A DNA stretch of 64,000 bases from Gemmatimonadales bacterium (GTDB lineage Bacteria; Gemmatimonadota; Gemmatimonadetes; Gemmatimonadales; GWC2-71-9): contig JBGATI010000017.1 in the NCBI GenBank assembly GCA_044229245.1, positions 16,830 through 80,829 on the forward strand. The letters are read 5' to 3'. A program made the position numbers and the translations under genes. Below are positions 3,629-64,000 of this stretch, piece after piece (the first letter of the stretch is position 1; each line of letters begins with the position of its first letter). The notes below the pieces were generated by a model. That model saw only the letters and a program-made list of their open reading frames with translations, had not been told where the DNA came from and made no database searches.

Positions 3629-4291
3629 TCAGTGGCAGCACCCGGGGCCACAGGTGGAGCGCCCGCGAATCCCCTCCACCCCTTCCCGCGCGATGATCGG
3701 CACCATCACCAGTGCCGCGAGCGGATCCGCCCACCACCATCCGAAGAGGGCATTGAGGCAGAGCCCGCCGAGCAGAATGGCGGAGAGATAGGCGCAGAGC
3801 TGGGTCTGCGTGGCCTCGGCCGCGAGTGCTCCGCTCTCGAGCTGAACAGCCAGCCGCCGCTTGCGCCGCGCAAGCCACGGCATGACGAGCAGGGAGAGAA
3901 TGGCGAGCACGATCCCCACCCGGCTCTCCTCCGGCGCCTCACGCAACCAGAGCGACTTCGACGCCTCCAGCAGGACGTACGCCGCCAGCGCCAGGAAGCA
4001 GGCGCCGATGAACCGGAGGCTCCGGTCCTCGACCTTCGCACGGTGCGCCGGATCGGCGTCCGCCGCGAGACGCCACAGGCCGGCGGCGCTCGCGCTGAGT
4101 TCGATCCCGCTGTCGAACCCGAACCCGACCAGCGCGATGCTACCGGCCGCGAGCCCAGCGGCCAGCGCGATCACCGCCTCGAGGCTGTTGTAGCACAGCG
4201 TCACGATCGTGAGCTTGCGGCTCCGCGCGACGAGCACGGAACGCTCCGATGCGCCACTGTCGCGGCTCCCCTGCACCGCCGATCGCTCCAT
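3629..4291 (-). CDS. Short cation-efflux (CDF-like) membrane-domain protein without a cytoplasmic domain
   Basis: ATG at 4291. About 6 hydrophobic helices. SIALVGFGFDSGIELSAS and LCAYLSAILLG resemble the TM2/TM5 regions of short cation-transporter proteins. Ends in the Cys-rich tail TCGPGCCH. Confidence 0.6.
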   Translation of the reverse strand: MERSAVQGSRDSGASERSVLVARSRKLTIVTLCYNSLEAVIALAAGLAAGSIALVGFGFDSGIELSASAAGLWRLAADADPAHRAKVEDRSLRFIGACFLALAAYVLLEASKSLWLREAPEESRVGIVLAILSLLVMPWLARRKRRLAVQLESGALAAEATQTQLCAYLSAILLGGLCLNALFGWWWADPLAALVMVPIIAREGVEGIRGRSTCGPGCCH

Positions 4292-4372: not shown

Positions 4373-4969
4373 TCACCCCTCGTGCGACTCCTTGAATGAC
4401 GGCATCCCCGCCTGGTCCGCACTGACACCGACGATGAGTGCCATCGGCCCCTCCGCAGACGGTGCGGTCCCGCCACGCAGCTCACCCTCCGGGACCGGCT
4501 CGTCGAGCCGGCAGAGATGCAGGGTTCCCGCCGTGCGGAGCGGGAGCGTCACCAGCGTCTCGGTCCCCGGTGTCTCGACCGGCCGCCAGTGACTCATCTC
4601 GGCGTGCGGCGTGGCGATGAGCAGTGAGATGCGGGCCCGCTGCCCCGCGGCGGGCGGCACGAGCCAGTGGAGCGCCTCCTTCGCGTAGGGGTCGTTCGTC
4701 GGGACCTGGACCGGGGCAGCCGCGTGCGGGATGAGAATGTCCGGTCCGCGCGACCAGCCGAGCCGGAAATCCTTGGGACGATGCCATCGGCTCACCGCGG
4801 TATCGACCGTGATCTTCCATCGGCCGGTGGGATAGATGATGAGCCCCACCAGCCCGTTCGCCGCGGCGACGGCAGCGTGCACCTCGTCCTCGTGGGTCCA
4901 GACGCGCCAGAGGCCGGAGCGGGGAGCGTCGGCGGTGCCGAGCGCGAAGCGGTAGACCTTGTTGGCCAT
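4373..4969 (-). CDS. Hypothetical cytoplasmic protein (no family recognised)
   Basis: 198-aa ORF with an ATG start and G/C-ending codons like neighbouring genes. No signal peptide. Confidence 0.6.
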   Translation of the reverse strand: MANKVYRFALGTADAPRSGLWRVWTHEDEVHAAVAAANGLVGLIIYPTGRWKITVDTAVSRWHRPKDFRLGWSRGPDILIPHAAAPVQVPTNDPYAKEALHWLVPPAAGQRARISLLIATPHAEMSHWRPVETPGTETLVTLPLRTAGTLHLCRLDEPVPEGELRGGTAPSAEGPMALIVGVSADQAGMPSFKESHEG

Positions 4970-15970: not shown

Positions 15971-17935
15971 TTATGGCGTGAATTGCGTCTTCTTTGGTTC
16001 AACCCGCATCACCCAGAGGCCGCTGTTGATGTCAGGCACGTACATGATGCCATTCTTGACCACCACGCCCCAGGCGAAGGGCACGTGCGGCTTGTGGCCC
16101 ATGGAGTCGGCGGTGAAGATCCAGCTGATCTCGCGGCCCTGACGCAGCAGGTCGCCCTTGAGCTCACCGGAGATGTCGAGCACCCGGGCCCCGCCCTGGT
16201 AATTGCCGAGATAGAGCGTGTCCCCCACCACCCAGACATTGTGCACGCCGCCGTCGGTCGGCTCGTACCAGGCGACCTCCTTCGGGTGCTCGATGTTCGA
16301 GACGTCGATCACGTGCAGCCGGCCCCAGGTCAGATTGTTGCCGTCCTTGAGCCCCTTCGCCTCCCGGGAGGCGTACACCTCGTCGCCGGCGAAGACGTAC
16401 TTGCCGGCGCGCCAGGCGGTGTGGGTGCCGCGGAAGCCGAGTCCGTAGAGCTGGTCCACCCGGGCATAGGTCTCGGAGAGGTTGTACTTGTACTGCGAGA
16501 CCAGCACCGGCTTCTCCGGCGTGCCCCCCTTCATGCCGTTGCCGACATCGAGGATGATCAGGCCGTCGTTCCAGTAGGCCAGATAGGCGAGACCGTCGAC
16601 CACCATGATGTCGTGCAGGTAGCGGCCCGCCTCGGTCTGCTCGGTCTGCCAGCGGCCGACTTCCTTCGGGTGAAACGGGTCCTCGATGCTGATGACCCGC
16701 ATCGAGCCGGTGGCGTCGTCGGTGATGTAGGCGTGACCCTTGTACACGTAGCTCGAGTGCACGCCGCCGGTGACGGTCTCGTTGTAGTCGGCGATGACCT
16801 TCGGATGGCAGGGGTCGCTGGCGTCGAAGACCTTGATGCCGTTCTTCCGGTTGGAGGCGCCCTCACGGGAGAAGACGCCGTACTTGCCGTCTTCCGTGGT
16901 CATGATGTCGTTGAGGATGCGGGCATCGGCCATCATCGAGTCGACGATAGCCGGGTTCGACGGGTCTTTGATGTCGACCACGTACGCCCGGTCGGCGATC
17001 GTGGTCATGTAGGCGCATTGCCCGGAGGGATGCACCCACACCTCGGCGGCGAGGTCCTTGATCGGCAGCCGGCCGAGCACTTCCATGCCGCGGGTGACCC
17101 GGCGGAGCGTCACGGTCACGACGAGGTCGGCGCTCTGCTTGCCGGCCTCGGCGGTGATGGTGTAGCGCCCCGGCTTCTCGGCGACGAAGGCGCCGTCGTT
17201 GTCGATCTGTGCGACGCCGTCGCCGCCGGCGACCGACCAGCGTGCGGCGAAGCCGGAGACCTTCTTCCCCGTCGGCGCGCGGCCGACGGCGGTGAAGCGG
17301 ACCACGTCTCCGGTCTTGACCCCCTGGCCCGCCGGCTCGATGTCGAGCCCGGTCAGGGTGTTCGGCACCACCTGCAGCGAGAGGGTGCTCTTCGCGGGGC
17401 CGGCCGTGCCGGTGATGGTCACCTTGCCGGGCGCGAGCGCCCGGAGACGACCGTCGCTCGTGATCGTCGCGACACGGGGATTGCTCGAGGTATAGCTGAT
17501 CGCGTCGTCGCGGGGATCGTTGTGGACGCTGTAGGCGGACCCCGCGATCGTGAGCCGGCTGCCGACGAGCACGTTGCCGCTGATGGGCACGAGGTCGATC
17601 CGCGCCGCGGCCTCGGGCGCGACTTCCGCCGTCGCGCGGCCGATCACCGGCTTGGTGTCCTTGGTGGACGCCACCGCGGTCACCAGCACCGTGCCACGAT
17701 AACCGGCGGTGAGCAGGCCGGTGGAATCGATATCACCCTGGCCGCCACCATCGAACCAGGAGATGCGCACATCGGGCACCGGCTGCCCCGCGGCGTCGAG
17801 CGCACGGGCGGAGAACTGCAGCTTCTGGCCGACCTGCAGCGAGGCCGTGGCCGGCGCGACCTCGACCCTGGCGATGGGCGAGGGCGCCTGCTGCTGCGGC
17901 TGCTGGACGAGCGCGAGGAGTAGAACTGGGAGCAT
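15971..17935 (-). CDS. Secreted protein: Big_2 Ig-like modules + LVIVD-repeat beta-propeller
   Basis: Signal-like N-terminus. Big_2 modules are present (LQVGQKLQFSARALDAAG). LVIVD repeats include GLAYLAYWNDGLIILDVGN, GGARVLDISG and GIMYVPDINSGLWVMRV. Confidence 0.8.
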   Translation of the reverse strand: MLPVLLLALVQQPQQQAPSPIARVEVAPATASLQVGQKLQFSARALDAAGQPVPDVRISWFDGGGQGDIDSTGLLTAGYRGTVLVTAVASTKDTKPVIGRATAEVAPEAAARIDLVPISGNVLVGSRLTIAGSAYSVHNDPRDDAISYTSSNPRVATITSDGRLRALAPGKVTITGTAGPAKSTLSLQVVPNTLTGLDIEPAGQGVKTGDVVRFTAVGRAPTGKKVSGFAARWSVAGGDGVAQIDNDGAFVAEKPGRYTITAEAGKQSADLVVTVTLRRVTRGMEVLGRLPIKDLAAEVWVHPSGQCAYMTTIADRAYVVDIKDPSNPAIVDSMMADARILNDIMTTEDGKYGVFSREGASNRKNGIKVFDASDPCHPKVIADYNETVTGGVHSSYVYKGHAYITDDATGSMRVISIEDPFHPKEVGRWQTEQTEAGRYLHDIMVVDGLAYLAYWNDGLIILDVGNGMKGGTPEKPVLVSQYKYNLSETYARVDQLYGLGFRGTHTAWRAGKYVFAGDEVYASREAKGLKDGNNLTWGRLHVIDVSNIEHPKEVAWYEPTDGGVHNVWVVGDTLYLGNYQGGARVLDISGELKGDLLRQGREISWIFTADSMGHKPHVPFAWGVVVKNGIMYVPDINSGLWVMRVEPKKTQFTP

Positions 17936-54552: not shown

Positions 54553-55818
54553 GTGCAACGAACTGGTAAAACCGGCCGGATTCGGCCGGAGACAGGCCCG
54601 CCAGAGGAGCCGGTGCGACCGATCAAGGTTGACCCCCCTTCCTTTAGGCGGCATCATCCACCCGTGGCGACGACCGCGAAAAGCCCCGCTCCCCCCGTGA
54701 GCGGCCCGGTTCCGGAAGGGACCGACCTCACCGAAACCCCTCCTGTCGACGAGCACCGGGAGTCCGCCGTTGCGGCGGGACTCCGGTACGTCACCGACTC
54801 GATGCCGGGGATCCGGCGCAAACGCGTCGGCCGGGGCGTGTCCTACCTTCGCCCCGACGGCTCCCGGGTCAAGGACCCGGCGACACTCAAGCGGATCCGC
54901 GGCCTGGTGATCCCGCCCGCCTGGACCGATGTGTGGATCTGTCCCTTCTCCGAGGGGCACATCCAGGTCACCGCCCGCGATGCCAAGGGACGCAAGCAAT
55001 ATCGCTATCACCCCCGGTATCGCGCCGTCCGGGACGAGACCAAGTTCGGCCGGATGCTCGAGTTCAGCGAACTGCTGCCGGGCATCCGTGAACATCTCGA
55101 GCACGATCTCGCGCTCACCGGCCTTCCCCGCCCCAAGCTGCTCGCCACCGTCGTGTGGCTGCTCGAGCGCACCTTCATCCGCGTCGGCAACGACGAATAC
55201 GCCCGGGACAACCGCTCCTACGGGCTCACCACGATGCGGCGCCGGCACCTGACGGTCTCCGGGTCGCGGATGGATTTCGAGTTCCGCGGCAAGAGCGGCG
55301 TGAAGCACGCGCTCTCGGTCACCGACCGCCGCATCGCCCGCATCGTCCAGCACTGCCAGTCGCTCCCCGGCGAGGAGCTGTTCCAGTATCTGGATGAGGA
55401 TGGGAAGCGGCAGTCGGTGGACTCGGGGGACATCAACGAGTATCTGCGGACGATCAGCGGGCGGGAGGTCACGGCGAAGGACTTCCGCACCTGGGCCGGG
55501 ACGATGCTCGCCGCCAACGCGCTCTGCAAGCTGGGCCCGGCGCCGAACGACAAGCAGGCCAAGGCGAACATCGTCGCGGCGGTGGATGAGGTGGCCAAGC
55601 GGCTGGGCAATACCCGTGCGGTCTGCCGCAAGTACTACGTGCATCCGGTGATCATCGAGGCTTACCTCCAGGGACAGGTGCCGCCGATTCCCCCCGAGCC
55701 GCCGACCCCCTCCCGCGATCACCCGTCGGCCAAGATTCGCCGCGACGAGGCGATCGTGCTGAACTTCATTCAGACGTGGGGGAAGGACTCGCCGGCGCCT
55801 GCCTCAACTGAATCCTAG
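54553..55818 (+). CDS. Type IB DNA topoisomerase (bacterial poxvirus-like TopIB)
   Basis: LRYVTDSMPGIRR, IPPAWTDVWI, RDAKGRKQYRYH, FRGKSGVKH, KDFRTWAGT and the catalytic-Tyr context CRKYYVHP. The true start is probably an internal GTG (54664 or 54697). Confidence 0.85.
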   Translation: MQRTGKTGRIRPETGPPEEPVRPIKVDPPSFRRHHPPVATTAKSPAPPVSGPVPEGTDLTETPPVDEHRESAVAAGLRYVTDSMPGIRRKRVGRGVSYLRPDGSRVKDPATLKRIRGLVIPPAWTDVWICPFSEGHIQVTARDAKGRKQYRYHPRYRAVRDETKFGRMLEFSELLPGIREHLEHDLALTGLPRPKLLATVVWLLERTFIRVGNDEYARDNRSYGLTTMRRRHLTVSGSRMDFEFRGKSGVKHALSVTDRRIARIVQHCQSLPGEELFQYLDEDGKRQSVDSGDINEYLRTISGREVTAKDFRTWAGTMLAANALCKLGPAPNDKQAKANIVAAVDEVAKRLGNTRAVCRKYYVHPVIIEAYLQGQVPPIPPEPPTPSRDHPSAKIRRDEAIVLNFIQTWGKDSPAPASTES

Positions 55819-55922
55819 GGCGCTCGCCCTGCGCGATCCCTCCCGGCGCTCGGCCTGCGCGATTCCACCCGGGGCTCGCCCTGCGCGATCCCTCCCGGCG
55901 CTCGGCCTCGCGGTGCTACAGA
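55819..55922. repeat. Four tandem 26-bp units (or 2 x 52 bp) starting 1 nt after the TopIB stop
   Basis: Units are 55819-55844, 55845-55870, 55871-55896 and 55897-55922. Units 1 and 3 match 25/26. An inverted partial copy (CGCGCAGGGC, 55961-55970) follows. Confidence 0.8.
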
Positions 55923-55989
55923 GGATTCCGCGGCTGCGAGGCCACGCGCCTCCCGGGACCCGCGCAGGGCTCGCAGCGAGAACCTTGCG

Positions 55990-56074
55990 CTACGCACTAC
56001 TCACTACGCACTAAGTACTAAGTACTAAGTACTAAGTACTAAGTACTAAGTACTCGGAACCCGGAACCCCGGAA
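55990..56074. repeat. Heptanucleotide tract: CTACGCA CTACTCA CTACGCA, (CTAAGTA)x6, then CTCGGAA CCCGGAA CCCCGGAA
   Basis: Read directly from the sequence. The core 56011-56052 is six perfect CTAAGTA copies, 71 % A+T in a very GC-rich genome. Confidence 0.9.
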
Positions 56075-56078
56075 CCCT

Positions 56079-57456: not shown

Positions 57457-57771
57457 CTACTCCGGCATGCATCCCCGAGGCGAGTACCTGAGCGGGATCG
57501 AGTCCCGCCTCGCGAGCGTGTCGCGTGCGACGGGCCGCGTGGGGGGCGCCGCATGCCGCTGTGGTGGTTGGGTCCGCGGGGCCTTCGCCTGATCCCGCCC
57601 GAGGCGGAGCGAATCCATCATGAACCCGTTCGCACGGACGAAAGCGGTATCGAAGTGCTCGGCCGCAGCGACCGCCACCGGAGCGATGCCGTCCCGAGCG
57701 CCGGCCACGATCGCTCCCAGCCCGAGCAGTGCAAAGGCGACGCTCAGCCCGCGTGGGAGACCATCGCTCAC
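57457..57771 (-). CDS. Possible small membrane protein, last gene of the sulfur operon
   Basis: The GTG overlaps the upstream TGA (GTGA). One TM helix (LSVAFALLGLGAIVAGA). The C-terminal half is low-complexity, so this may be non-coding. Confidence 0.3.
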   Translation of the reverse strand: MSDGLPRGLSVAFALLGLGAIVAGARDGIAPVAVAAAEHFDTAFVRANGFMMDSLRLGRDQAKAPRTQPPQRHAAPPTRPVARDTLARRDSIPLRYSPRGCMPE

Positions 57772-58349
57772 CGCTTCCTCCCTGCCGTCAGCCGTTCAAT
57801 CAGCAGGAACGCACCGAGCGCCAGCAACGTGATGCTCCCGACCACCACTCCAGTCGGCAGACCGAGCAGATCGGACAACGTCGCCCCCGGCATCGGGGTC
57901 GATTCGAGGAACGGCCCGAGCGAGCCGGCGACCTCACCGAACACCAGCATGCCCGCCACCATGCCGACGAGCGCCGCGAGGCCATCGAGTCGTCCGCTCA
58001 CACTGGCCACGCATGAGGTGCCCGGGCAGTAGCCGGCGAGCACGAAGCCCGCCCCGAATATCAGTCCACCCACGAGCTGCGGCAGGACGTAGGTCGGAGG
58101 AACAAGGAGCGCCGCCCGATCGAGCACCCCGGACCGCTCGGCCCAGTAGAGGCCCAGCATCGCCGTGATGATGGCGGTGAACATCACCTTGAACACGGTG
58201 AGGTCCCGGAAGTAGAACTGTCCGCTGAGCTTCCGGCCGTCACCGAGACCTCCCCGCTCGAGCGCCGCACCGAAGCCGGCGCCGAGGAGAAGCGCGAAGC
58301 CGAGGCCGAACGGCTGCGGCATGCCGTCCAGCGGAAAGGTCAGCCCCAT
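57768..58349 (-). CDS. YeeE/YedE-family half-size membrane protein (sulfur-compound transport)
   Basis: FGAGFVLAGYCPGTS contains the conserved Cys loop. 10-nt overlap with the upstream gene. Confidence 0.8.
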   Translation of the reverse strand: MGLTFPLDGMPQPFGLGFALLLGAGFGAALERGGLGDGRKLSGQFYFRDLTVFKVMFTAIITAMLGLYWAERSGVLDRAALLVPPTYVLPQLVGGLIFGAGFVLAGYCPGTSCVASVSGRLDGLAALVGMVAGMLVFGEVAGSLGPFLESTPMPGATLSDLLGLPTGVVVGSITLLALGAFLLIERLTAGRKR

Positions 58350-58873
58350 TGCCGCCTCACAAACCAGGCGGAGAGATACCCGCCTCCGAACAGGGCGAGC
58401 ATGAACACCCAGCTCCCTACCCCCAGCAGCGCGCCACCGGTGAGCGCGAGTCCGCTGGTGCAGCCGCGTGCCAGTGCGGCCCCGAACCCCATCACGCAGC
58501 CTCCGGTCGCGGCACAGGCGAGTCGCGCCGGGTCCCTGACTCGATCTCCGCGGGTGACGCAGAGACGCACCCGACCTGCGCGTCTCGCCGAGTAATAGGC
58601 GCCGAGCATGAGGCCCAGCACCTCGAAGACGATCCAGTAGCGAACGGCGAACGGCGTCGCGGTGCGCTCGTCGGCATAGAACGGGTTGGCGGTGACCTGC
58701 GCCGGAAGCAGCAGGCGCATGGCATCGCCGGTCACGGTCCGGACCGCGCCGATGACGCCCAGCCCTCGGCCGGCGATCAGGAACGAGGCGAGGAGCACCA
58801 GGCCAAGGGCGACGCCAGCGAGATAGGGGTTGGCGTATCGTTCCCCGGGATCAGTGGCGGAAGTAGGCGGCAT
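58340..58873 (-). CDS. YeeE/YedE-family half-size membrane protein (sulfur-compound transport)
   Basis: Start is the ATG at 58873. GFGAALARGCTSGLALTG contains the conserved Cys loop. 23-nt overlap with the upstream gene. Confidence 0.8.
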   Translation of the reverse strand: MPPTSATDPGERYANPYLAGVALGLVLLASFLIAGRGLGVIGAVRTVTGDAMRLLLPAQVTANPFYADERTATPFAVRYWIVFEVLGLMLGAYYSARRAGRVRLCVTRGDRVRDPARLACAATGGCVMGFGAALARGCTSGLALTGGALLGVGSWVFMLALFGGGYLSAWFVRRQWG

Positions 58874-60197
58874 AGTCGACGCTCCCCCTTGGGTGGGTGT
58901 AGTCCCCGTGCGCGGGGTCGTACGCGTATCCGTCGGCGTACCTCCCTTCGGCGATCGCCGTGACCGCCTCCACAAGGCGGAGCACCTCCTCCCGCGTGTT
59001 GTCGAGACCGAAGCTCACCCGCACCGCTCCGGGCAGCGGATGGCCGGACGGGACGGACCGCTCGTCGATGCCGAGCAGATGCCGGATGTACGCCTGCGCG
59101 CAGAAGCACCCACTCCGGGTTCCGATGCCCCACTCGGCCCCGAGGATTCCCGCGACCAGGCCGTGCGGCAACCCCCTGAGGTTGAAGGAGACGACCCCGA
59201 CCCGTGGCCGCGCCGTGCCGCCGTAGAGGGTGAGGCCGGGAATCGCGCCGAGTCGCTGCAGCGCGAGCTGAGTCAGCTCCGCCTCCCGGGCCACGATCCG
59301 GCGCCACCCGATCTCGTTGCAGTAGCGGAGCGCGGCCGCGAGAGCCACGGCGCCCATGATGCATGGCGTGCCGGCCTCCTCGCGCGCCGGCAGCGTCGTC
59401 CAGATGACCTCCTGCTCCGCGACCCGGCTCACCGTGCCACCTCCGACCTGGTACGGCGCGCCTGAGGCGAAGAGGGCGCGCGGTGCCACCAGCACGCCAG
59501 CCCCGAACGGTGCGTAGAGCTTGTGCCCGGAGAAGACCAGGAGATCGAGGTGACGCGGGTCATCCGGGTGTCCCAGTTCGATCGGGCGATGCGGGGCAAG
59601 CTGGGCGGCATCCACCATGATGCGAGCGCCCGCCGCGTGGGCCCACTCCGCCCAGGTGTGCACCGGATTGAGCAGGCCGGTGACGTTCGACGCACCCGTC
59701 ACCGCGAGCAGTGCGACTCGGCCCCGATACGCCGCGAGCTTCGCGACGAGATCCGATTCATCCACCGCGCCGTCCGCCGTGAGCCCGACATGCACGACCT
59801 CCGCGACCCGCCGCCACGGGAGCTCGTTGGAGTGATGCTCCATGAGGGTCGTCAGTACCACGGCACCGGAGGCCAGTGGATAGCGCGCCGCGAGCTGGTT
59901 GATCGCCTCACTGGTGTTGCGGGTGAAGATCACCACACCATGCGCATCATCCACGCCAAGGTGCCTGGCGATATCCTCGCGCGCAGCCTCGTAGGCCCAG
60001 GTGCTGAGGCGCGACTTGAAGCCGGCGCCCCGGTGCACGTTGCCGTACCAGGACGCGAGTCCATTGACCGCCTGGAGTGCCGCCTGGCAGGGTGGCGTGC
60101 TCGCGGCGTTGTCAAAGTTCACGTAGCTGGTCATCCCTCCTCCCAGCAGCGGCACCTGGACGTCGCCGCCGGCAACCAGGCCCATGGCGGCGGTCAT
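58851..60197 (-). CDS. Class-V aminotransferase-fold PLP enzyme, cysteine-desulfurase-like (MOCOS/NifS-like)
   Basis: The ATG at 60197 overlaps the upstream TGA (ATGA). PLP-Lys context FSGHKLYAPFGAGVL. Active-site Cys context GTRSGCFCAQ. Confidence 0.8.
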   Translation of the reverse strand: MTAAMGLVAGGDVQVPLLGGGMTSYVNFDNAASTPPCQAALQAVNGLASWYGNVHRGAGFKSRLSTWAYEAAREDIARHLGVDDAHGVVIFTRNTSEAINQLAARYPLASGAVVLTTLMEHHSNELPWRRVAEVVHVGLTADGAVDESDLVAKLAAYRGRVALLAVTGASNVTGLLNPVHTWAEWAHAAGARIMVDAAQLAPHRPIELGHPDDPRHLDLLVFSGHKLYAPFGAGVLVAPRALFASGAPYQVGGGTVSRVAEQEVIWTTLPAREEAGTPCIMGAVALAAALRYCNEIGWRRIVAREAELTQLALQRLGAIPGLTLYGGTARPRVGVVSFNLRGLPHGLVAGILGAEWGIGTRSGCFCAQAYIRHLLGIDERSVPSGHPLPGAVRVSFGLDNTREEVLRLVEAVTAIAEGRYADGYAYDPAHGDYTHPRGSVDYAAYFRH

Positions 60198-61114
60198 TTC
60201 GTGTGCAGACTCCGATTGGCGCCCTCCACCGGGAGGTCGCTGCGGCCGCTCCACTCCTGGAAGGAGCCGTCGTAGAGCCGCACGTCGTAGCCGAGATAGC
60301 GGGCCGCGAACCAGACGAGCGAGGCCTGCTGACCGATGTGGCAGTAGCCGACCACCGTCTTTCCCCTGGTCACGCCGGCCGCGGCAAACTTCGCCTCCAG
60401 CGTGGCGCGATCAAGCAGATGATTCTGGTCGTCCACGAGCCGGTCATATGGCAGGCTCTTCGCGCCAGGAATGTGTCCGCCCCGGGGCATCTCGTTGTCG
60501 AGCGTGTCGAGATAGAAGCCGGGATCACGCGCGTCGATGAGGGCGATCTCCGGCGAATCGAGCCGCGCCTTGAGCCAGTCCGCCGTCACAATGACATCCG
60601 GCCTGAAGGCGGTCTTGAAATGGCCCGGCGTCACCGCGGGGACCTCGGTCGTCACCGGGTTGCCGGCTGTCACCCAGGCCGGGAGGCCGCCGTCGAGCAG
60701 CGACACCCGCCCGCGAAGCCCCGCGGCCTCGAGGGTCAGCACCGCGCGGGTGGAGGGTGAGACCCAGTCGTTGGCGAAGTAGACGATCACGCGCGAGTCA
60801 TTGGAGACGCCCTTGGCCGAGAAGACCGAGTCGAGTTTCGCCGCCGAGGGAAGTTCGAGCATCAGCGGCATCGGCGTCGCGGTCATGTCGTGCGGCGTCG
60901 AGAGGTCACGAAAGTCCAGTCGCTGCGCGCGGGGGATGTGGCGGGCCGCATACTCCTCCGGACGGCCGATCTCGAAGAGGACCAGGCCAGGATCGTGCAG
61001 GTGCGCGGCGAGCCACGCGGGCGAGACCAGGATCGGCTCGGCGCGTGCCGCGGGGGCGGCGGGGGCAGGATCAGTGGCGAAGATGAGGGACGAAGCGAGC
61101 AGCAGTGCCAGCAT
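60194..61114 (-). CDS. Tandem-rhodanese sulfurtransferase with a probable export signal
   Basis: GGGAGG precedes the ATG at 61114 (MLALLLASSLIFA). Two rhodanese modules. The active-site loop is YCHIGQQAS. The listed TTG start at 61180 sits 7 nt from the direct repeats and is less likely. Confidence 0.8.
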   Translation of the reverse strand: MLALLLASSLIFATDPAPAAPAARAEPILVSPAWLAAHLHDPGLVLFEIGRPEEYAARHIPRAQRLDFRDLSTPHDMTATPMPLMLELPSAAKLDSVFSAKGVSNDSRVIVYFANDWVSPSTRAVLTLEAAGLRGRVSLLDGGLPAWVTAGNPVTTEVPAVTPGHFKTAFRPDVIVTADWLKARLDSPEIALIDARDPGFYLDTLDNEMPRGGHIPGAKSLPYDRLVDDQNHLLDRATLEAKFAAAGVTRGKTVVGYCHIGQQASLVWFAARYLGYDVRLYDGSFQEWSGRSDLPVEGANRSLHTK

Positions 61115-61186
61115 GAGGCCTCCCGGGTGTGAAGTCGCTGTAACCGGCTTCACGATGGGAAGGCTGGCACGTCGGGACAATCAGTT

Positions 61187-61215
61187 TGCAGCGAACGGTC
61201 AACCGGTGCAGCGAA
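61187..61215 (-). promoter_or_regulatory. Direct-repeat pair TGCAGCGAA N11 TGCAGCGAA (20-bp period) between the LytTR gene stop and the rhodanese gene
   Basis: The copies are at 61187-61195 and 61207-61215. The architecture fits LytTR-family binding sites. Confidence 0.5.
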
Positions 61216-61236
61216 TGGCGGGAAGGGCGCGAGTCG

Positions 61237-62019
61237 TCAGAGCGCCTGGCCGAGCCGGGCCTCGAGGTGCTCGCGGCGGGCGCGGCTCAGTTTGAGCCGG
61301 GTCCCGTCCTGCAAGAGCAGGATATGCTCCCCCTTGAAGTAGGGCTGGAGCTCGCGGATCCGGTCGAGATTCACGATGGCGGAGCGATGCACGCGGAAGA
61401 ATCGGGCGGGATCGAGCCGGGCCTCGAGGGCGTTCAGCGATTCCCGGAGCAGGTGCACCTGCCCCCGGGTGTGGAGCTTCACGTTGTAGTCCGCCGCCTC
61501 GATCCAGTCGAGATCCTCCACCCGGACGAAGGCCACGCTCCCCTCGTGTTTGACGATGAGCCGGGTCAGCCGCGGCTCGGACGGGGCCGCACGACCGCGA
61601 TCCTCGAGCAGCCCGACCAGCCGGCGGCTGAGCTCGCCGAGCTCGGCGCTCCGGAGACTCTTCTTGGCACGGTCGAGTGCCTCGGCGAAGCGTTCATCGT
61701 CGAAGGGCTTGAGCAGGTAATCCAGCGCGTGCACCTCGAAGGCCCGGAGGGCGTGCTGATCGTACGCCGTCACGAAGATCACCGCCGGCATCCGGTCCCG
61801 CGGCAGCGTGCGCAGGACCTCGAAGCCGTCGAGCTCCGGCATCTGCACGTCGAGGATCAGCAGGTCAGGCTGCAGAGTCCGGATGGCCTCGACGGCGGCG
61901 CGGCCATCGGCGGCCTCCCCGACGACGGCGATCTCCGGATCCCTGGCGAGGAGCTGTACCACTCCCGTCCGCGCCAGCGGCTCGTCATCCACCACGAGCA
62001 CCCGGACGGGCGCGCTCAT
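61237..62019 (-). CDS. LytTR-family response regulator
   Basis: ATGA overlap with the kinase gene. REC domain (VLVVDDEPLAR ... LLILDVQMP). The C-terminal LytTR domain includes VRVEDLDWIEAADYNVKLHT ... FFRVHRSAIVNL. Confidence 0.9.
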   Translation of the reverse strand: MSAPVRVLVVDDEPLARTGVVQLLARDPEIAVVGEAADGRAAVEAIRTLQPDLLILDVQMPELDGFEVLRTLPRDRMPAVIFVTAYDQHALRAFEVHALDYLLKPFDDERFAEALDRAKKSLRSAELGELSRRLVGLLEDRGRAAPSEPRLTRLIVKHEGSVAFVRVEDLDWIEAADYNVKLHTRGQVHLLRESLNALEARLDPARFFRVHRSAIVNLDRIRELQPYFKGEHILLLQDGTRLKLSRARREHLEARLGQAL

Positions 62020-63143
62020 GCGATCGCCGGCACCGGGGACGCCGGCCGGGTGCGAAACGGCAGCGTGATGCGCGCGATGACCCCACCCCCGTCCGCCTCG
62101 CGCAATTCGAAGGACTGCTCGCCGCCATAGAGCCGGGCGAGGCGCTCGCGGATGTTGCGCAGCCCGACCCCGGTGCTCGGCACGGGCGTGCGGGAGTCGT
62201 CGAGCCCGGGACCGTCGTCCCGCACTGTGAGCAGCAGCCGGTCGCCGTCGCGCGCGGCGGCGATCTCTACCAGACCGGCGGCCGCCCTCCGGCCGATGCC
62301 ATGCCGAATGGCGTTCTCCACCAGCGGCTGCAGCAGCAGATTGGGCACCCACGCCTCCGCGGTGCCGGGAGCGGTGTTCACCACGACCTGCAGCCGGTCC
62401 TGGAATCGCACCCGCTCGATCGCCAGGTACCGTTCGAGAAATCCCAGCTCCTCGGCCAGCGGGACCTCGAGGGCCGGGTGCTCCTGCAGCACGTAGCGCA
62501 TGAGCTCGCTCAGTCCCGCGAGGGCGCGGACCGCCTCATCGTTGCGCTTCGCGCGGACCAGCATCGCCACGCTGTTCATCGCATTGAAGAAGAAGTGCGG
62601 GTTGAGCTGGTTGCGGAGGGCCTCGAGCTGGCTCTCCGCCAGCTGCACCGCGAGGTTCGCCGCCGCGCGCTCCCGCTCCCGAAAGCGGCGATAGTACCCC
62701 GCGGCATAGAGGAGCCCGAGGATCGAGCCGTAGGCCGGCAGGTCGAAAGTCAGGGAGCGGATCGCACCGACCAGCAGCCCGATCCCGAGCGTCGCCGGTG
62801 TCGAGAAGTGGATAATGCCAAAGGCGAAGGTGATGAGGCTCTGAATGACGGAGTGCAGCATCGTGACCGCGATCGCCACGATCAGGTGGAGCAGCACCTT
62901 GGCCAGCGGCCACTCGCCTTCGAGCGGCACCCGGTTCACAAACCAGATGATGATCGGGGCCAGCAGTATCCAGATGAACCAGTAGGGCATCCCCATCTTC
63001 AGCGCATGGGCGATCGTCGGATCGCCGCCATGCTGCAGCATCGAGAGATGGTGTTCGCCGGAGCCGATGGCACCGAGCACGGTGGCGACACCGAGCGCGA
63101 CGAGGAACAGCTGCCGGCCGATGGGGAGCGGGGAGTCGTCCAT
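62016..63143 (-). CDS. LytS/YehU-type sensor histidine kinase (polytopic sensor + His_kinase + HATPase_c)
   Basis: LNPHFFFNAMNSVAMLV is the PF06580 H-box. Start is the ATG at 63143 (MDDSP); the listed 63152 is a TTG. Confidence 0.85.
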   Translation of the reverse strand: MDDSPLPIGRQLFLVALGVATVLGAIGSGEHHLSMLQHGGDPTIAHALKMGMPYWFIWILLAPIIIWFVNRVPLEGEWPLAKVLLHLIVAIAVTMLHSVIQSLITFAFGIIHFSTPATLGIGLLVGAIRSLTFDLPAYGSILGLLYAAGYYRRFRERERAAANLAVQLAESQLEALRNQLNPHFFFNAMNSVAMLVRAKRNDEAVRALAGLSELMRYVLQEHPALEVPLAEELGFLERYLAIERVRFQDRLQVVVNTAPGTAEAWVPNLLLQPLVENAIRHGIGRRAAAGLVEIAAARDGDRLLLTVRDDGPGLDDSRTPVPSTGVGLRNIRERLARLYGGEQSFELREADGGGVIARITLPFRTRPASPVPAIA

Positions 63144-63182
63144 GCGCGTCAAGCTACGCGCCGGACCCGGTGGGGAGAAGGC

Positions 63183-63215
63183 TGGTGCAGCGAAAGTCGC
63201 TCCTGGTGCAGCGAG
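63183..63215 (-). promoter_or_regulatory. Direct-repeat pair CTGGTGCAGCGA N9 CTGGTGCAGCGA (21-bp period) 40-72 nt upstream of the LytS-type kinase gene
   Basis: The 12-mer copies are at 63183-63194 and 63204-63215. They share the core of the pair at 61187-61215. Confidence 0.5.
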
Positions 63216-63251
63216 CGCCCCATACGCCGCAGCAGGCCAAGGCAGGCCAGC

Positions 63252-63830
63252 TCAGTCCGGCGGCGGATCGAAGAGCGACGGCTGGTCGGTCGTCTGCGCG
63301 CCTTCGATGTGCAGCAGGCGGAGCTTGGTTACCCGGCCGCCACTCGCCGAGAAACCCCCGACCCGGCCACCCGCCGCGAGCACCCGGTGACAGGGGACGA
63401 CGATGACGAAGGGATTGGCGCCCAGCGCCTGGCCCACCGCCCGGGAGGCACCGGGTTCGCCGAGCCGTGCGGCGATCGCGCCGTAGGTCAGCGTCCGCCC
63501 CCGGGCGATGCCGCGGGCGACGTCGTACACTCGGCGGTGAAAGGGCGGGATCCCCTCCAGATCGAGCGGTGCAGCGGAGAGATCCCGCCGCTCTCCCTTC
63601 AGCAGTGCCACGATGCCATCGATCGTCTCCTGAATCTCCGGCGGCGGTTCGGTGGCGACGGTGACGGGGAAGCGCTCGAGCAGCCGGGCACGAGTGTCCC
63701 GTTCGGTGACCTCGGGCAGCTGCACCGCGACGATGCCGCGATCGCTCCAGGCGATGCCGACTCGGCCAAGGGTGGTATCGAAGAGGGTGTAGCCGATCGG
63801 TCCGCGATCGGCATCGGCTTCGTTGATCAT
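63252..63830 (-). CDS. ogt: Methylated-DNA--protein-cysteine methyltransferase
   Basis: Active site VVPCHRVL, with TYGAIAARLG and the helix-turn-wing region. Start is the ATG at 63830. Confidence 0.9.
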   Translation of the reverse strand: MINEADADRGPIGYTLFDTTLGRVGIAWSDRGIVAVQLPEVTERDTRARLLERFPVTVATEPPPEIQETIDGIVALLKGERRDLSAAPLDLEGIPPFHRRVYDVARGIARGRTLTYGAIAARLGEPGASRAVGQALGANPFVIVVPCHRVLAAGGRVGGFSASGGRVTKLRLLHIEGAQTTDQPSLFDPPPD

Positions 63831-63837
63831 CTGGCGT

Positions 63838-64000
63838 TCAGTCCGACTGCAGTTCGCTGACGGCCCGTTCAGCCTGGTCGATGGCACAGTTGGTGTACGC
63901 AAAGGCGCCGGCATCGGAGTTGGCGATGGTGATCCGGCCGAATCGCTGCCGGCCGATCACACAGGGTTCGAGGTGTTCCGGGACGATCGGGTCCCAGAGT
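63838..64000 (-). CDS. 3' end of an unidentified gene running off the window
   Basis: Not in the ORF track because it has no start in the window. Hand translation is open to the edge (LWDPIVPEHLEPCVIGRQRFGRITIANSDAGAFAYTNCAIDQAERAVSELQSD*) with G/C-ending codons. The stop is 7 nt before the ogt start. Confidence 0.5.
   Translation of the reverse strand, partial: LWDPIVPEHLEPCVIGRQRFGRITIANSDAGAFAYTNCAIDQAERAVSELQSD

Follow-up and report, generated by a model that had tools for sequence, protein, structure and literature searches.

Phased direct repeats beside a LytTR-type two-component system in a soil Gemmatimonadota bacterium: a candidate operator for the kinase gene and an adjacent rhodanese operon

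A two-component system with a LytTR response regulator and an adjacent set of sulfur-related genes were analysed in a 64-kb stretch of DNA (hereafter the window) from a soil Gemmatimonadota bacterium. In gene order, the locus comprises:

62016..63143, minus strand: sensor histidine kinase, 375 aa (Pfam PF06580 His_kinase and HATPase_c)
61237..62019, minus strand: response regulator with REC and LytTR domains, 260 aa (Pfam; start codon checked)
60194..61114, minus strand: two-domain rhodanese, 306 aa (Pfam, NCBIfam)
58851..60197, minus strand: SufS-family cysteine desulfurase-like protein, 448 aa (Pfam Aminotran_5; start by homology to the relative L161)
58340..58873, minus strand: first half-size Sulf_transp (YeeE/YedE-type) membrane protein (Pfam PF04143; coordinates by homology to L161)
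57768..58349, minus strand: second half-size Sulf_transp (YeeE/YedE-type) membrane protein (PF04143 and DUF6691; coordinates by homology to L161)
57457..57792, minus strand: small conserved open reading frame, about 111 aa, without a Pfam family (a called gene in L161)

The Pfam domains agree with the identities that an earlier note on this DNA had given to the regulator, the rhodanese, the aminotransferase and the YeeE/YedE genes. Its label “LytS” for the kinase did not hold. Four hydrophobic segments within residues 1-135, as seen in the hydropathy profile, are followed by PF06580 and HATPase_c, an architecture nearer to AlgZ/FimS. The only Pfam matches at E <= 0.001 were PF06580, PF02518 and PF13581, and both 5TMR-LYT (PF07694) and GAF were absent at this threshold. 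The kinase start was corrected to the ATG at 63143, and gene calls in relatives range from 375 to 377 aa. The regulator, whose ATG overlaps the kinase stop codon (ATGA), carries PF00072 (95.7 bits) and PF04397 (86 bits), each above the gathering score, and its homologues in Gemmatimonadota are 60-96% identical. Against solved structures, its LytTR domain gave a weak match to 3d6w (E = 2e-4).

The rhodanese has a signal-like hydrophobic N-terminus and the active-site loop CHIGQQAS. Its orthologues follow the regulator in seven relatives, all with a hydrophobic N-terminus. The ATG of the desulfurase-like gene overlaps the rhodanese stop codon (ATGA), and the small open reading frame, 70% identical to the L161 gene by tblastn and overlapping the end of the second Sulf_transp gene, is probably the final gene of the operon. 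By its family-level domains (Rhodanese twice, Aminotran_5, Sulf_transp twice) the operon is of a sulfur-trafficking type. Scores against TsuA, SufS and 3-mercaptopyruvate sulfurtransferase (3-MST) all stayed far under the NCBIfam cut-offs for equivalog-level identity: the rhodanese scored 109 against a 3-MST cut-off of 250, the desulfurase-like protein 282 bits against 475 for the sufS subfamily, and Sulf_transp 44.9 against 400 for TsuA.

Two intergenic regions, one 5' of the kinase gene and the other in the regulator-rhodanese spacer, each hold a phased pair of direct repeats, with a weaker third copy on the kinase side:

63228..63235, minus strand: kinase-side repeat 0, degenerate CTGCTGCG (gene strand)
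63207..63214, minus strand: kinase-side repeat 1, TCGCTGCA within the 12-mer TCGCTGCACCAG (exact match, period 21)
63186..63193, minus strand: kinase-side repeat 2, promoter-proximal TCGCTGCA (exact match)
61207..61214, minus strand: rhodanese-side repeat 1, distal TCGCTGCA (exact match)
61187..61194, minus strand: rhodanese-side repeat 2, proximal TCGCTGCA, extended ACCGTTCGCTGCA (exact match, period 20)

On the minus strand, which is the gene strand, the motif reads TCGCTGCA, or CCGT-TCGCTGCA with its 5' extension; on the plus strand, exact matches to TGCAGCGA start at 61187, 61207, 63186 and 63207. Each half-site consists of an 8-bp invariant core and a 4-nt 5' extension, and the periods of 20 and 21 bp leave 12-13 nt between cores. 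The TGCA centre of the core is itself palindromic. On the regulator side, TGCAGCGAA occupies 61187-61195 and 61207-61215 (period 20), as the earlier note had it. On the kinase side, where the note had placed the pair at 63183-63215, one base off, the 12-mers CTGGTGCAGCGA lie at 63182-63193 and 63203-63214 (period 21), the proximal one ending 38 nt before the ATG (63143) of the kinase. Repeat 0 precedes the distal kinase-side repeat by exactly 21 bp, and its pairing with either repeat 1 or repeat 2 scores 13/16. Two other candidates for functional elements, an AGCGA-ctt-TCGCT palindrome between the kinase-side repeats and an inverted copy, TTACAGCGA, present in the rhodanese 5' UTR, were rejected, as the conservation of each ends at the closest relatives.

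The pairing itself proved correct: these are the only two same-strand pairs without mismatch at 15-30 bp spacing in the 64-kb window. Allowing one mismatch per copy added one weak pair, at 1984/2007 (TCGCGGCA/TCGCCGCA, spacing 23), and no other pair with at least 14/16 matches, at one or two periods, was found within the window. The 8-mer TGCAGCGA occurs 11 times, against 3.3 +/- 1.8 expected, and none of 100 shuffles gave 11. The isolated copies reported inside coding sequences are present, at 17373, 17835 and 59253. A shuffle-controlled count of pairs, which had been proposed for the whole genome, was run within the window; two pairs were found, and any 8-mer with two direct-repeat pairs (19-22 bp, at most 3 kb apart) was seen in one of 200 third-order Markov shuffles. 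This motif-agnostic test gives p ~0.005, with the intergenic location left out of account.

Close relatives were obtained through exact-protein look-ups (L161, L162, L163, L164, L165, L169 and L081). All seven keep the order kinase-regulator-rhodanese, with regulators 65-96% identical, and in all of them a phased pair stands between regulator and rhodanese. The repeats are the main conserved island within otherwise diverged spacers. In the rhodanese-side spacer, invariant columns make up 13/16 of the repeat positions versus 13/125 elsewhere (Fisher p = 5e-9); upstream of the kinase, the same comparison gives p = 5e-4. The distal rhodanese-side repeat is conserved in L161-L165, L169 and L081, and the GCTGCA of the proximal one is invariant in six diverged spacers. 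The proximal kinase-side repeat is kept in all relatives and in distant phyla, and repeat 0 aligns with the distal repeat of L162-L169, where it is well conserved. Inside the Gemmatimonadota clade the period has shifted between 20 and 21, with the repeats themselves kept. When the window proteins were compared with 160 loci by tblastn, the sulfur genes showed no synteny beyond Gemmatimonadota. The link to rhodanese is thus not family-wide, and gene order indicates that the rhodanese output is limited to one Gemmatimonadota subclade.

The motif recurs well beyond these relatives. Protein-pattern scans of genome and metagenome contigs returned matches of which those listed are mostly paralogues at 30-55% identity. 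Among the matches listed, a 21-bp-phased pair precedes the kinase orthologue in about ten independent lineages, belonging to Proteobacteria, Acidobacteriota, Myxococcota and Marinimicrobia. The pattern T[CG]GCTGCA-N13-TCGCTGCA lies 5' of the kinase in Steroidobacteraceae, Pseudoduganella, Sphingomicrobium, Marinimicrobia, Nannocystis, Lysobacter and Thermoanaerobaculia. Motif matches numbered 14 in the zones upstream of the kinase (16.6 kb) and 10 in those downstream of the regulator (26 kb), versus 11 in 1.77 Mb of background, a frequency ~60-140x the background. In a neighbour-joining (NJ) tree of 110 regulators, all 25 motif-positive loci fall into one contiguous block of 36 leaves, and none among the 74 leaves outside it. 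Four clade members (L001, L011, L019 and L105) showed no pair at the 14/16 threshold.

The analysis shows that the sites are present and not random, that their position and phase are both conserved, and that they co-vary with a single clade of regulators. Coincidence, meaning two chance pairs of a GC-rich 8-mer, could be entertained for a short motif picked by a reader after viewing the sequence. It is effectively refuted, and its probability negligible, because the shuffle test reproduced the arrangement once in 200 trials, the motif recurs independently in dozens of loci across phyla at its many-fold enrichment, and the relatives' spacers carry a conserved footprint. We also consider it very unlikely that the repeats serve another DNA-binding protein, or are structural or mobile elements to which the two-component system is incidentally adjacent. 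A core as simple as the TGCA palindrome in a genome of 68.5% GC would suit such an origin, as would the excess of TGCAGCGA outside the sites (seven further copies versus ~3.3 expected). Against it, the motif-bearing loci of at least five phyla have no genes in common apart from the kinase-regulator pair, and the motif follows one regulator clade, with paralogues bearing other phased repeats (e.g., CCGTTCGTC, TTCGTCGC and GTCACGAACGG). A direct-repeat architecture of 20-21 bp is, moreover, a hallmark of LytTR regulators (PMC4847170), and a dispersed element is at odds with the lack of additional phased pairs in the window and of any Rfam match. The Rfam search, which covered riboswitches and small RNAs in 60900-63400, gave no match at E <= 1.

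Both pairs are accompanied by promoter-like elements:

63174..63179, minus strand: weak -35-like hexamer TTCTCC (putative promoter role), 17 nt ahead of the -10 box
63151..63156, minus strand: predicted kinase -10 box TAGCTT, 29 nt past the proximal repeat, with the ATG 7 nt further on
61175..61180, minus strand: -35-like hexamer TTGTCC, which includes the TTG start of the mechanical open reading frame (putative role)
61152..61157, minus strand: putative -10-like hexamer CATCGT, 29 nt past the proximal repeat
61119..61124, minus strand: Shine-Dalgarno sequence GGGAGG of the rhodanese gene (4 nt before its ATG at 61114)

On the kinase side, GTA..TT at the -10 position is invariant in an alignment of six relatives, and L162-L164 keep a CTTCTCC block. 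A TAnnnT hexamer is found in distant phyla, 28-29 nt past the repeat and 5-9 nt ahead of the kinase ATG. Two loci (L086 and L005) carry an inverted pair, yet its distance to the kinase -10 box is unchanged. Because the -10 box sits 5-9 nt before the ATG, the kinase mRNA is predicted to be leaderless. On the rhodanese side, L161-L163 hold TTGTCC, TAGTCC or TTGTCG at the -35-like position, and the relatives read CATCGT, CATGAT, TAGCTT or TACCTT at the -10 position; transcription of the operon would start near 61144-61145. The rhodanese start was corrected to the ATG at 61114, as the earlier note had argued. The conserved GGGAGG (GGAGG or GAGG ahead of the ATG in L161, L162, L164, L165 and L169) and the relatives' gene calls of 296-315 aa support this choice, and the alternative TTG at 61180, disfavoured there as well, falls within the hexamer TTGTCC. 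A consensus scan found no canonical sigma-70 promoter, which fits activator dependence, and the fixed geometry from repeat to -10 box points to an activator-type position.

We consider it likely that these repeats serve the neighbouring REC-LytTR regulator as its operator, through which it drives its own genes and the rhodanese operon. The membrane kinase (four transmembrane segments, PF06580 and HATPase) would phosphorylate the regulator, whose protomers may then bind head-to-tail on (CCGT)TCGCTGCA half-sites 20-21 bp, or two helical turns, apart. With site centres at about -45 and -66, and a weak third at about -87 on the kinase side, the bound regulator would recruit RNA polymerase to two weak promoters. 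The first, TTCTCC-N17-TAGCTT, would place the transcription start on the kinase ATG or beside it; the mRNA would then be leaderless, and the system would activate its own genes in a positive loop. The second, TTGTCC-N17-CATCGT within the regulator-rhodanese spacer, would drive the exported rhodanese, the SufS-like desulfurase and the two YeeE/YedE-type half-transporters. Thiosulfate, some other reactive sulfur species or cyanide may serve as the signal. Binding, activation rather than repression, and both transcription starts are what we infer from sequence and its conservation. The autoregulation and the direct control of the sulfur operon proposed in the earlier note both gain support: in many lineages phased repeats stand ahead of the kinase orthologue, with a constant spacing to the -10 box, and the pair is kept in the regulator-rhodanese spacer of seven relatives, the remainder of which has diverged.

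A variant of this model appears rather unlikely to us. Here, the regulator binds the repeats, but the rhodanese-side pair makes no independent promoter; the sulfur genes would form the distal part of a kinase-regulator-rhodanese transcript and the pair would be a repressor, roadblock or fine-tuning site, or the regulator would repress at both places. No intrinsic terminator was found between the regulator and rhodanese genes, so some or even all transcription of the operon could come from polymerase reading on from the kinase promoter. Nor was a consensus promoter found there, and CATCGT is a poor -10 element in the source genome. Repression is within the repertoire of the family, as the LytTR regulators AlgR and AgrA can repress too (PMC4064291, PMC4227749). 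However, in all seven relatives the rhodanese-side pair lies, like the kinase-side pair, 28-29 nt from a TAnnnT/CAnnnT hexamer, with a TTGTCC-like -35 at 17 nt from that -10, and five of them (L163, L164, L165, L169 and L081) have a good -10 hexamer, TAGCTT or TACCTT. A repressor site normally overlaps the polymerase footprint, whereas the sites here, at -41 to -70, are clear of it.

Among characterised systems, LytTR sites consist of two direct or inverted repeats of 9-11 nt with 11-13 nt between them, about 21 bp centre to centre (PMC4847170), and the LytTR-like geometry claimed for this locus matches them. Judged by sequence features, the system resembles AlgZ/AlgR more than LytS/LytR. AlgZ has about four transmembrane helices in its first ~150 residues, no large periplasmic domain and a PF06580-type core (PMC4064291). 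The kinase here has the architecture of AlgZ(FimS) of Pseudomonas aeruginosa in all three respects, and AlgR, like the regulator here, combines REC and LytTR. Full-length identity to an AlgR sequence is ~37%, an approximate value. The half-site CCGTTCGCTGCA and the AlgR core CCGTTCGTC have their first seven bases in common, CCGTTCG (PMC4064291). The AlgR core is nevertheless not matched at the repeats: 7/9 positions are common, and the 3' part is the invariant GCTGCA here versus GTC in AlgR. The exact AlgR 9-mer does occur, as 21-bp direct repeats, at the paralogue L021. Further differences from AlgZ/AlgR lie in the host (Gemmatimonadota versus Pseudomonas), in the layout of the sites (here, tandem pairs or triplets that keep strictly to 20-21 bp and adjoin the promoter; at algD and algC, scattered sites that can be far upstream or intragenic), and in the adjoining output, which is rhodanese and sulfur trafficking here and alginate, type IV pili or hcnA for AlgR.

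In layout, the locus resembles the Firmicutes quorum-sensing regulators of AgrA, ComE and PlnC/D type, which likewise have paired direct repeats of ~21 bp just 5' of a sub-optimal promoter, and which combine positive autoregulation with activation of a neighbouring operon (PMC4227749, PMC4847170), as proposed here. AgrA binds repeats directly upstream of the promoters that it activates (PMC4227749). In contrast to these systems, no pheromone-peptide or processing gene is present, the kinase is not of the AgrC/HPK10 type, the half-site sequence is unrelated, and the LytTR-domain similarity to AgrA is negligible (E about 0.9). BtsS/BtsR (YehU/YehT) and YpdA/YpdB of E. coli and LytS/LytR of Staphylococcus, all two-component systems of the LytS/LytTR class, have direct-repeat operators 5' of a single adjacent or nearby target (PMC4847170). 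BtsR was the best-scoring NCBIfam model for the regulator, at 161.6 bits versus an equivalog cut-off of 246, and LytR reached 126.7 bits versus 375. The LytS/LytR and BtsS/BtsR kinases have 5TMR-LYT and GAF modules, which the kinase here lacks, and the BtsR/YpdB/LytR group targets a pyruvate/peptide transporter or holin-like genes instead of a rhodanese operon.

A full-text literature search on LytTR together with rhodanese, thiosulfate or Gemmatimonadetes returned incidental co-mentions and no paper linking them; a LytTR regulator tied to sulfur-transferase/thiosulfate-type genes is an output that this search did not find in the literature. Operons of rhodanese and YeeE/TsuA-type genes are controlled by persulfide sensors such as CstR, SqrR/BigR and FisR and by the sigma-54 two-component systems of sulfur oxidisers; to our knowledge, none of these belongs to the LytTR family. 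We also know of almost no experimental study of regulation in Gemmatimonadota. The repeats offer a candidate operator at base-pair resolution for an uncharacterised two-component clade widespread in soil bacteria, with a predicted circuit of positive feedback from a leaderless promoter and one adjacent effector operon. The consensus can be used directly for regulon prediction in complete genomes.

A more general scenario is speculative, and we regard it as improbable in its entirety. One clade of an AlgZR-like two-component family spanning several phyla would share a fixed operator, with two to three copies of CCGTTCGCTGCA phased at 21 bp, and a kinase promoter that is leaderless and activates itself; one Gemmatimonadota subclade would be hard-wired to exported rhodaneses and the sulfur operon, and the family's membrane-embedded kinases would detect small reactive molecules within the envelope. 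If true, the scenario would supply a lead, open to testing, on what AlgZ-type kinases sense. The varied neighbour genes suggest hypotheses about the signals of these AlgZ-like membrane kinases, as orthologues outside the Gemmatimonadota subclade adjoin cytochrome P460, DJ-1/PfpI and other exported proteins. If neighbours report the stimulus, the molecules sensed would be of kinds such as thiosulfate or persulfide, cyanide, or NO/hydroxylamine. In Pseudomonas, AlgR controls cyanide synthesis (hcnA), and rhodanese detoxifies cyanide.

All genes between 56 and 64 kb of the window lie on the minus strand, and the source names of the regulator homologues place the organism in the Gemmatimonadota. 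The kinase stop overlaps the regulator ATG at 62019 as ATGA, as does the rhodanese stop with the start of the SufS-like gene. The protein query used for the regulator carried one N-terminal codon more than this true start gives.

Genes of the locus (Pfam assignments)
63252-63914, minus strand: O6-methylguanine methyltransferase
62016-63143, minus strand: histidine kinase (PF06580 His_kinase and HATPase_c)
61237-62019, minus strand: response regulator (REC and LytTR), true start ATG 62019
60194-61114, minus strand: two-domain rhodanese
next after the rhodanese, minus strand: class-V aminotransferase (SufS-like)
after the SufS-like gene, minus strand: two half-size Sulf_transp (YeeE/YedE) genes
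after the Sulf_transp genes, minus strand: MFS transporter

The earlier note had described a pair of direct repeats in each of the two spacers flanking the kinase and regulator genes, and exact copies were indeed found in both; only its kinase-side coordinates needed shifting by one base.

Repeats and promoter elements
61187, 61207, 63186 and 63207 (plus-strand positions): exact copies, by exact match search, of the motif, TCGCTGCA on the gene strand
63182-63193 and 63203-63214: kinase-side TCGCTGCACCAG, twice, period 21 bp
63228-63235: third, degenerate kinase-side copy, CTGCTGCG, exactly 21 bp further upstream
regulator-rhodanese spacer: TTCGCTGCA, twice, period 20 bp
63174-63179, minus strand: kinase -35-like TTCTCC
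63151-63156, minus strand: kinase -10 TAGCTT
63143, minus strand: kinase ATG, no Shine-Dalgarno evident
61175-61180, minus strand: rhodanese -35-like TTGTCC
61152-61157, minus strand: rhodanese -10 CATCGT
61119-61124, minus strand: rhodanese Shine-Dalgarno GGGAGG
61114, minus strand: rhodanese ATG

The 8-mer occurs 11 times in the window against 3.3 expected. Same-strand pairs without mismatch at 15-30 bp spacing are limited, within the window, to these two; permitting one mismatch per copy adds one weak pair (1984/2007), and no further pairs with at least 14/16 matches at one or two periods occur elsewhere in the window. A shuffle comparison of pairs, proposed in the earlier note, was run on the window in motif-agnostic form, asking for any 8-mer with two separate direct-repeat pairs (19-22 bp) within 3 kb, and was positive in 1/200 third-order Markov shuffles.

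Strong comparative evidence, from relatives' spacers, cross-phylum pairs and the regulator clade, makes it probable that the repeats are, as had been suggested, LytTR sites serving autoregulation and control of the rhodanese operon. Contigs of seven Gemmatimonadota relatives were obtained by exact-protein look-ups of regulator homologues, except L081, which came from a metagenome scan, among the matches listed. Their regulators are 96% (L161), 84% (L162), 75% (L163), 76% (L164), 69% (L165), 67% (L169) and 65% (L081) identical to that of the window, and in each of the seven a rhodanese comes after the regulator. L161, L162 and L163 share the SufS-like gene; L161 adds both Sulf_transp genes, and the contigs of L162 and L163 stop short of the transporter position. 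L165 and L169 have two or three rhodaneses in place of these genes, and the contigs of L164 and L081 end inside the rhodanese region. In every relative, the rhodaneses start with a hydrophobic, signal-like N-terminus and share a conserved CHIGQQ(A/G)S loop. Every regulator-rhodanese spacer contains T[CG][GAC]CTGCA-N12/13-T[CG]GCTGCA, and in a six-sequence alignment of diverged spacers 13/16 repeat columns are invariant, compared to 13/125 others (Fisher p = 5e-9). The repeats recur every 20 bp in the window and L161-L163 and every 21 bp in L164, L165, L169 and L081; a 1-bp spacer change was thus tolerated, with the repeats retained. Upstream of the kinase (conservation p = 5e-4) there are three phased positions. 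In the relatives the outer two, distal and proximal, are good and the middle one is degenerate, whereas the window has its degenerate copy in the distal position and perfect ones in the other two.

Of 80 genome loci listed by a regulator profile search, three Steroidobacteraceae, Pseudoduganella, Sphingomicrobium and a Marinimicrobia MAG have this pair in front of the orthologous kinase, and Nannocystis, Lysobacter and Thermoanaerobaculia a weaker one, all with a 21-bp period and at most 1-2 mismatches. The pair was also found just 3' of the regulator in L002, L008 and L095, and weakly (13/16 matches) in L009. At a threshold of at least 14/16 matches, pairs occur at 0.84 per kb in kinase-upstream zones and 0.38 per kb in regulator-downstream zones, compared to 0.006 per kb in the other 1.77 Mb of DNA fetched. 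When 110 regulators were placed in a neighbour-joining tree, a single contiguous 36-leaf block took in every one of the 25 motif-positive loci, with none among the 74 leaves outside; four clade members have no pair at the threshold used. Because motif-bearing loci have no gene content in common but the kinase-regulator pair, the regulator is, by this comparison, much the strongest candidate for the protein binding the repeats. One such locus, L051 (CALQBJ020000130.1), with the clade's two-component system and a motif pair near the kinase, is labelled a Bifidobacterium breve MAG; the contig is probably mis-binned.

Counted over 48 half-sites, the consensus is CCGT-TCGCTGCA; position -4 is C in 23/24 distal sites. 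The proximal repeat lies 28-29 nt from a TAnnnT hexamer at kinase- and rhodanese-side sites with a recognisable hexamer; some distant loci have none, yet their spacing to the ATG is unchanged. Three phased repeats, not two, occur in some regulator-downstream operators (L165 4421-4470, L169 3863-3912, L095 2007-2057), as a pair plus a degenerate third from which the 28 nt to the -10 box are counted. In Gemmatimonadota and distant phyla alike, the kinase ATG comes 5-9 nt past the hexamer with no Shine-Dalgarno evident in that interval, which implies a putatively leaderless kinase mRNA. In L166-L168, the automatic kinase call (400 aa) begins 5' of the repeats; judged by the conserved geometry (pair, 29 nt, TAATTT, 5 nt, ATG), it seems over-extended, with the true start ~80 nt downstream. 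The rhodanese start at ATG 61114, which the earlier note had preferred to TTG 61180, fits the GGGAGG Shine-Dalgarno and a predicted 5' UTR of ~30 nt; the TTG lies inside TTGTCC. An inverted copy, TTACAGCGA, in this 5' UTR (61134-61142) and a 5-bp palindrome, AGCGA-ctt-TCGCT, between the kinase-side repeats (63194-63206) are kept in the closest relatives only and are therefore probably not functional.

With their centres predicted near -45 and -66, ahead of weak core elements, the repeats are arranged as for an activator; AgrA has the same arrangement at P2 and P3 (PMC4227749). From centre to centre they are spaced as in published LytTR sites (PMC4847170). From these positions and spacing we propose that the phosphorylated regulator would bind the repeats head-to-tail and activate both the kinase and the rhodanese promoter, giving positive feedback and induction of the exported rhodanese, SufS-like, YeeE-type operon. 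Here we infer regulator binding, direction of regulation, transcription starts and signal. By consensus scan, the region 60900-63400 contains no canonical sigma-70 promoter and no terminator, and it has no Rfam match. Several observations sit less easily with the model. For lack of a terminator, read-through may add to transcription of the operon, and the -10 element before the rhodanese gene is a poor one in the window. In two other loci, L086 (~3912-3940) and L005 (~4897-4925), the TGCAGCGA pair lies inverted with respect to the kinase gene, retaining the 29 nt to the kinase -10 box (TAGCTT or TAGTTT) and facing a divergently transcribed cytochrome P460 gene.

Outside the rhodanese subclade, the genes downstream of motif pairs differ: DJ-1/PfpI (L008), a SnoaL/DUF4440 protein (L095), DUF998 (L009), a TonB-dependent receptor (L057) and a 512-aa protein without assignment (L002). 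The sulfur output is thus specific to one lineage. On a bolder reading, put at low probability, the class of signal that AlgZ-like kinases sense would show in the variable exported neighbours.

With four hydrophobic segments within its first ~135 residues and neither a 5TMR-LYT nor a GAF domain by Pfam, the kinase fits the description of AlgZ/FimS (PMC4064291), not LytS or BtsS. The regulator stays below the NCBIfam equivalog thresholds for BtsR (161.6 vs 246) and LytR (126.7 vs 375), and is ~37% identical to AlgR, an approximate figure and not a database result. The AlgR core CCGTTCGTC (PMC4064291) shares CCGTTCG with the half-site here, but the invariant 3' part differs. The system would work like a LytTR system of AlgR type, and is at most a candidate member of AlgZR, LytSR or BtsSR proper. 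Paralogous PF06580-kinase/LytTR systems have direct repeats of their own, phased at 20-21 bp but different in sequence, ahead of the kinase: CCGTTCGTC twice, the exact AlgR 9-mer, ~83 nt upstream in a Myxococcus locus (L021), TTCGTCGC three times in L083 and GTCACGAACGG twice in L017, L033 and L100. Autoregulatory phased repeats on a CGTTCG core may prove general to the family.

A full-text literature search found no paper that ties a LytTR regulator to rhodanese or thiosulfate genes or to Gemmatimonadota. New here are the definition of an operator and the prediction of an autoregulated circuit for a LytTR clade that spans several phyla and is uncharacterised; in one Gemmatimonadota subclade there is also a sulfur-transferase output, apparently undescribed so far.

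Elsewhere in the window, a bacterial type IB topoisomerase (54553-55818, plus strand; Topoisom_I catalytic core and Top1B_N_bact by Pfam), an enzyme type uncommon in bacteria, converges on the MFS gene. The spacer between them (55819-56077) holds a 26-bp tandem repeat, GGCGCTCGCCCTGCGCGATCCCTCCC, in 3.7 copies (55819-55912), followed by three abutting 7-8-bp microsatellites, one of them a perfect AT-rich (ACTAAGT)x6.4 at 56010-56054, in a window of 68.5% GC.
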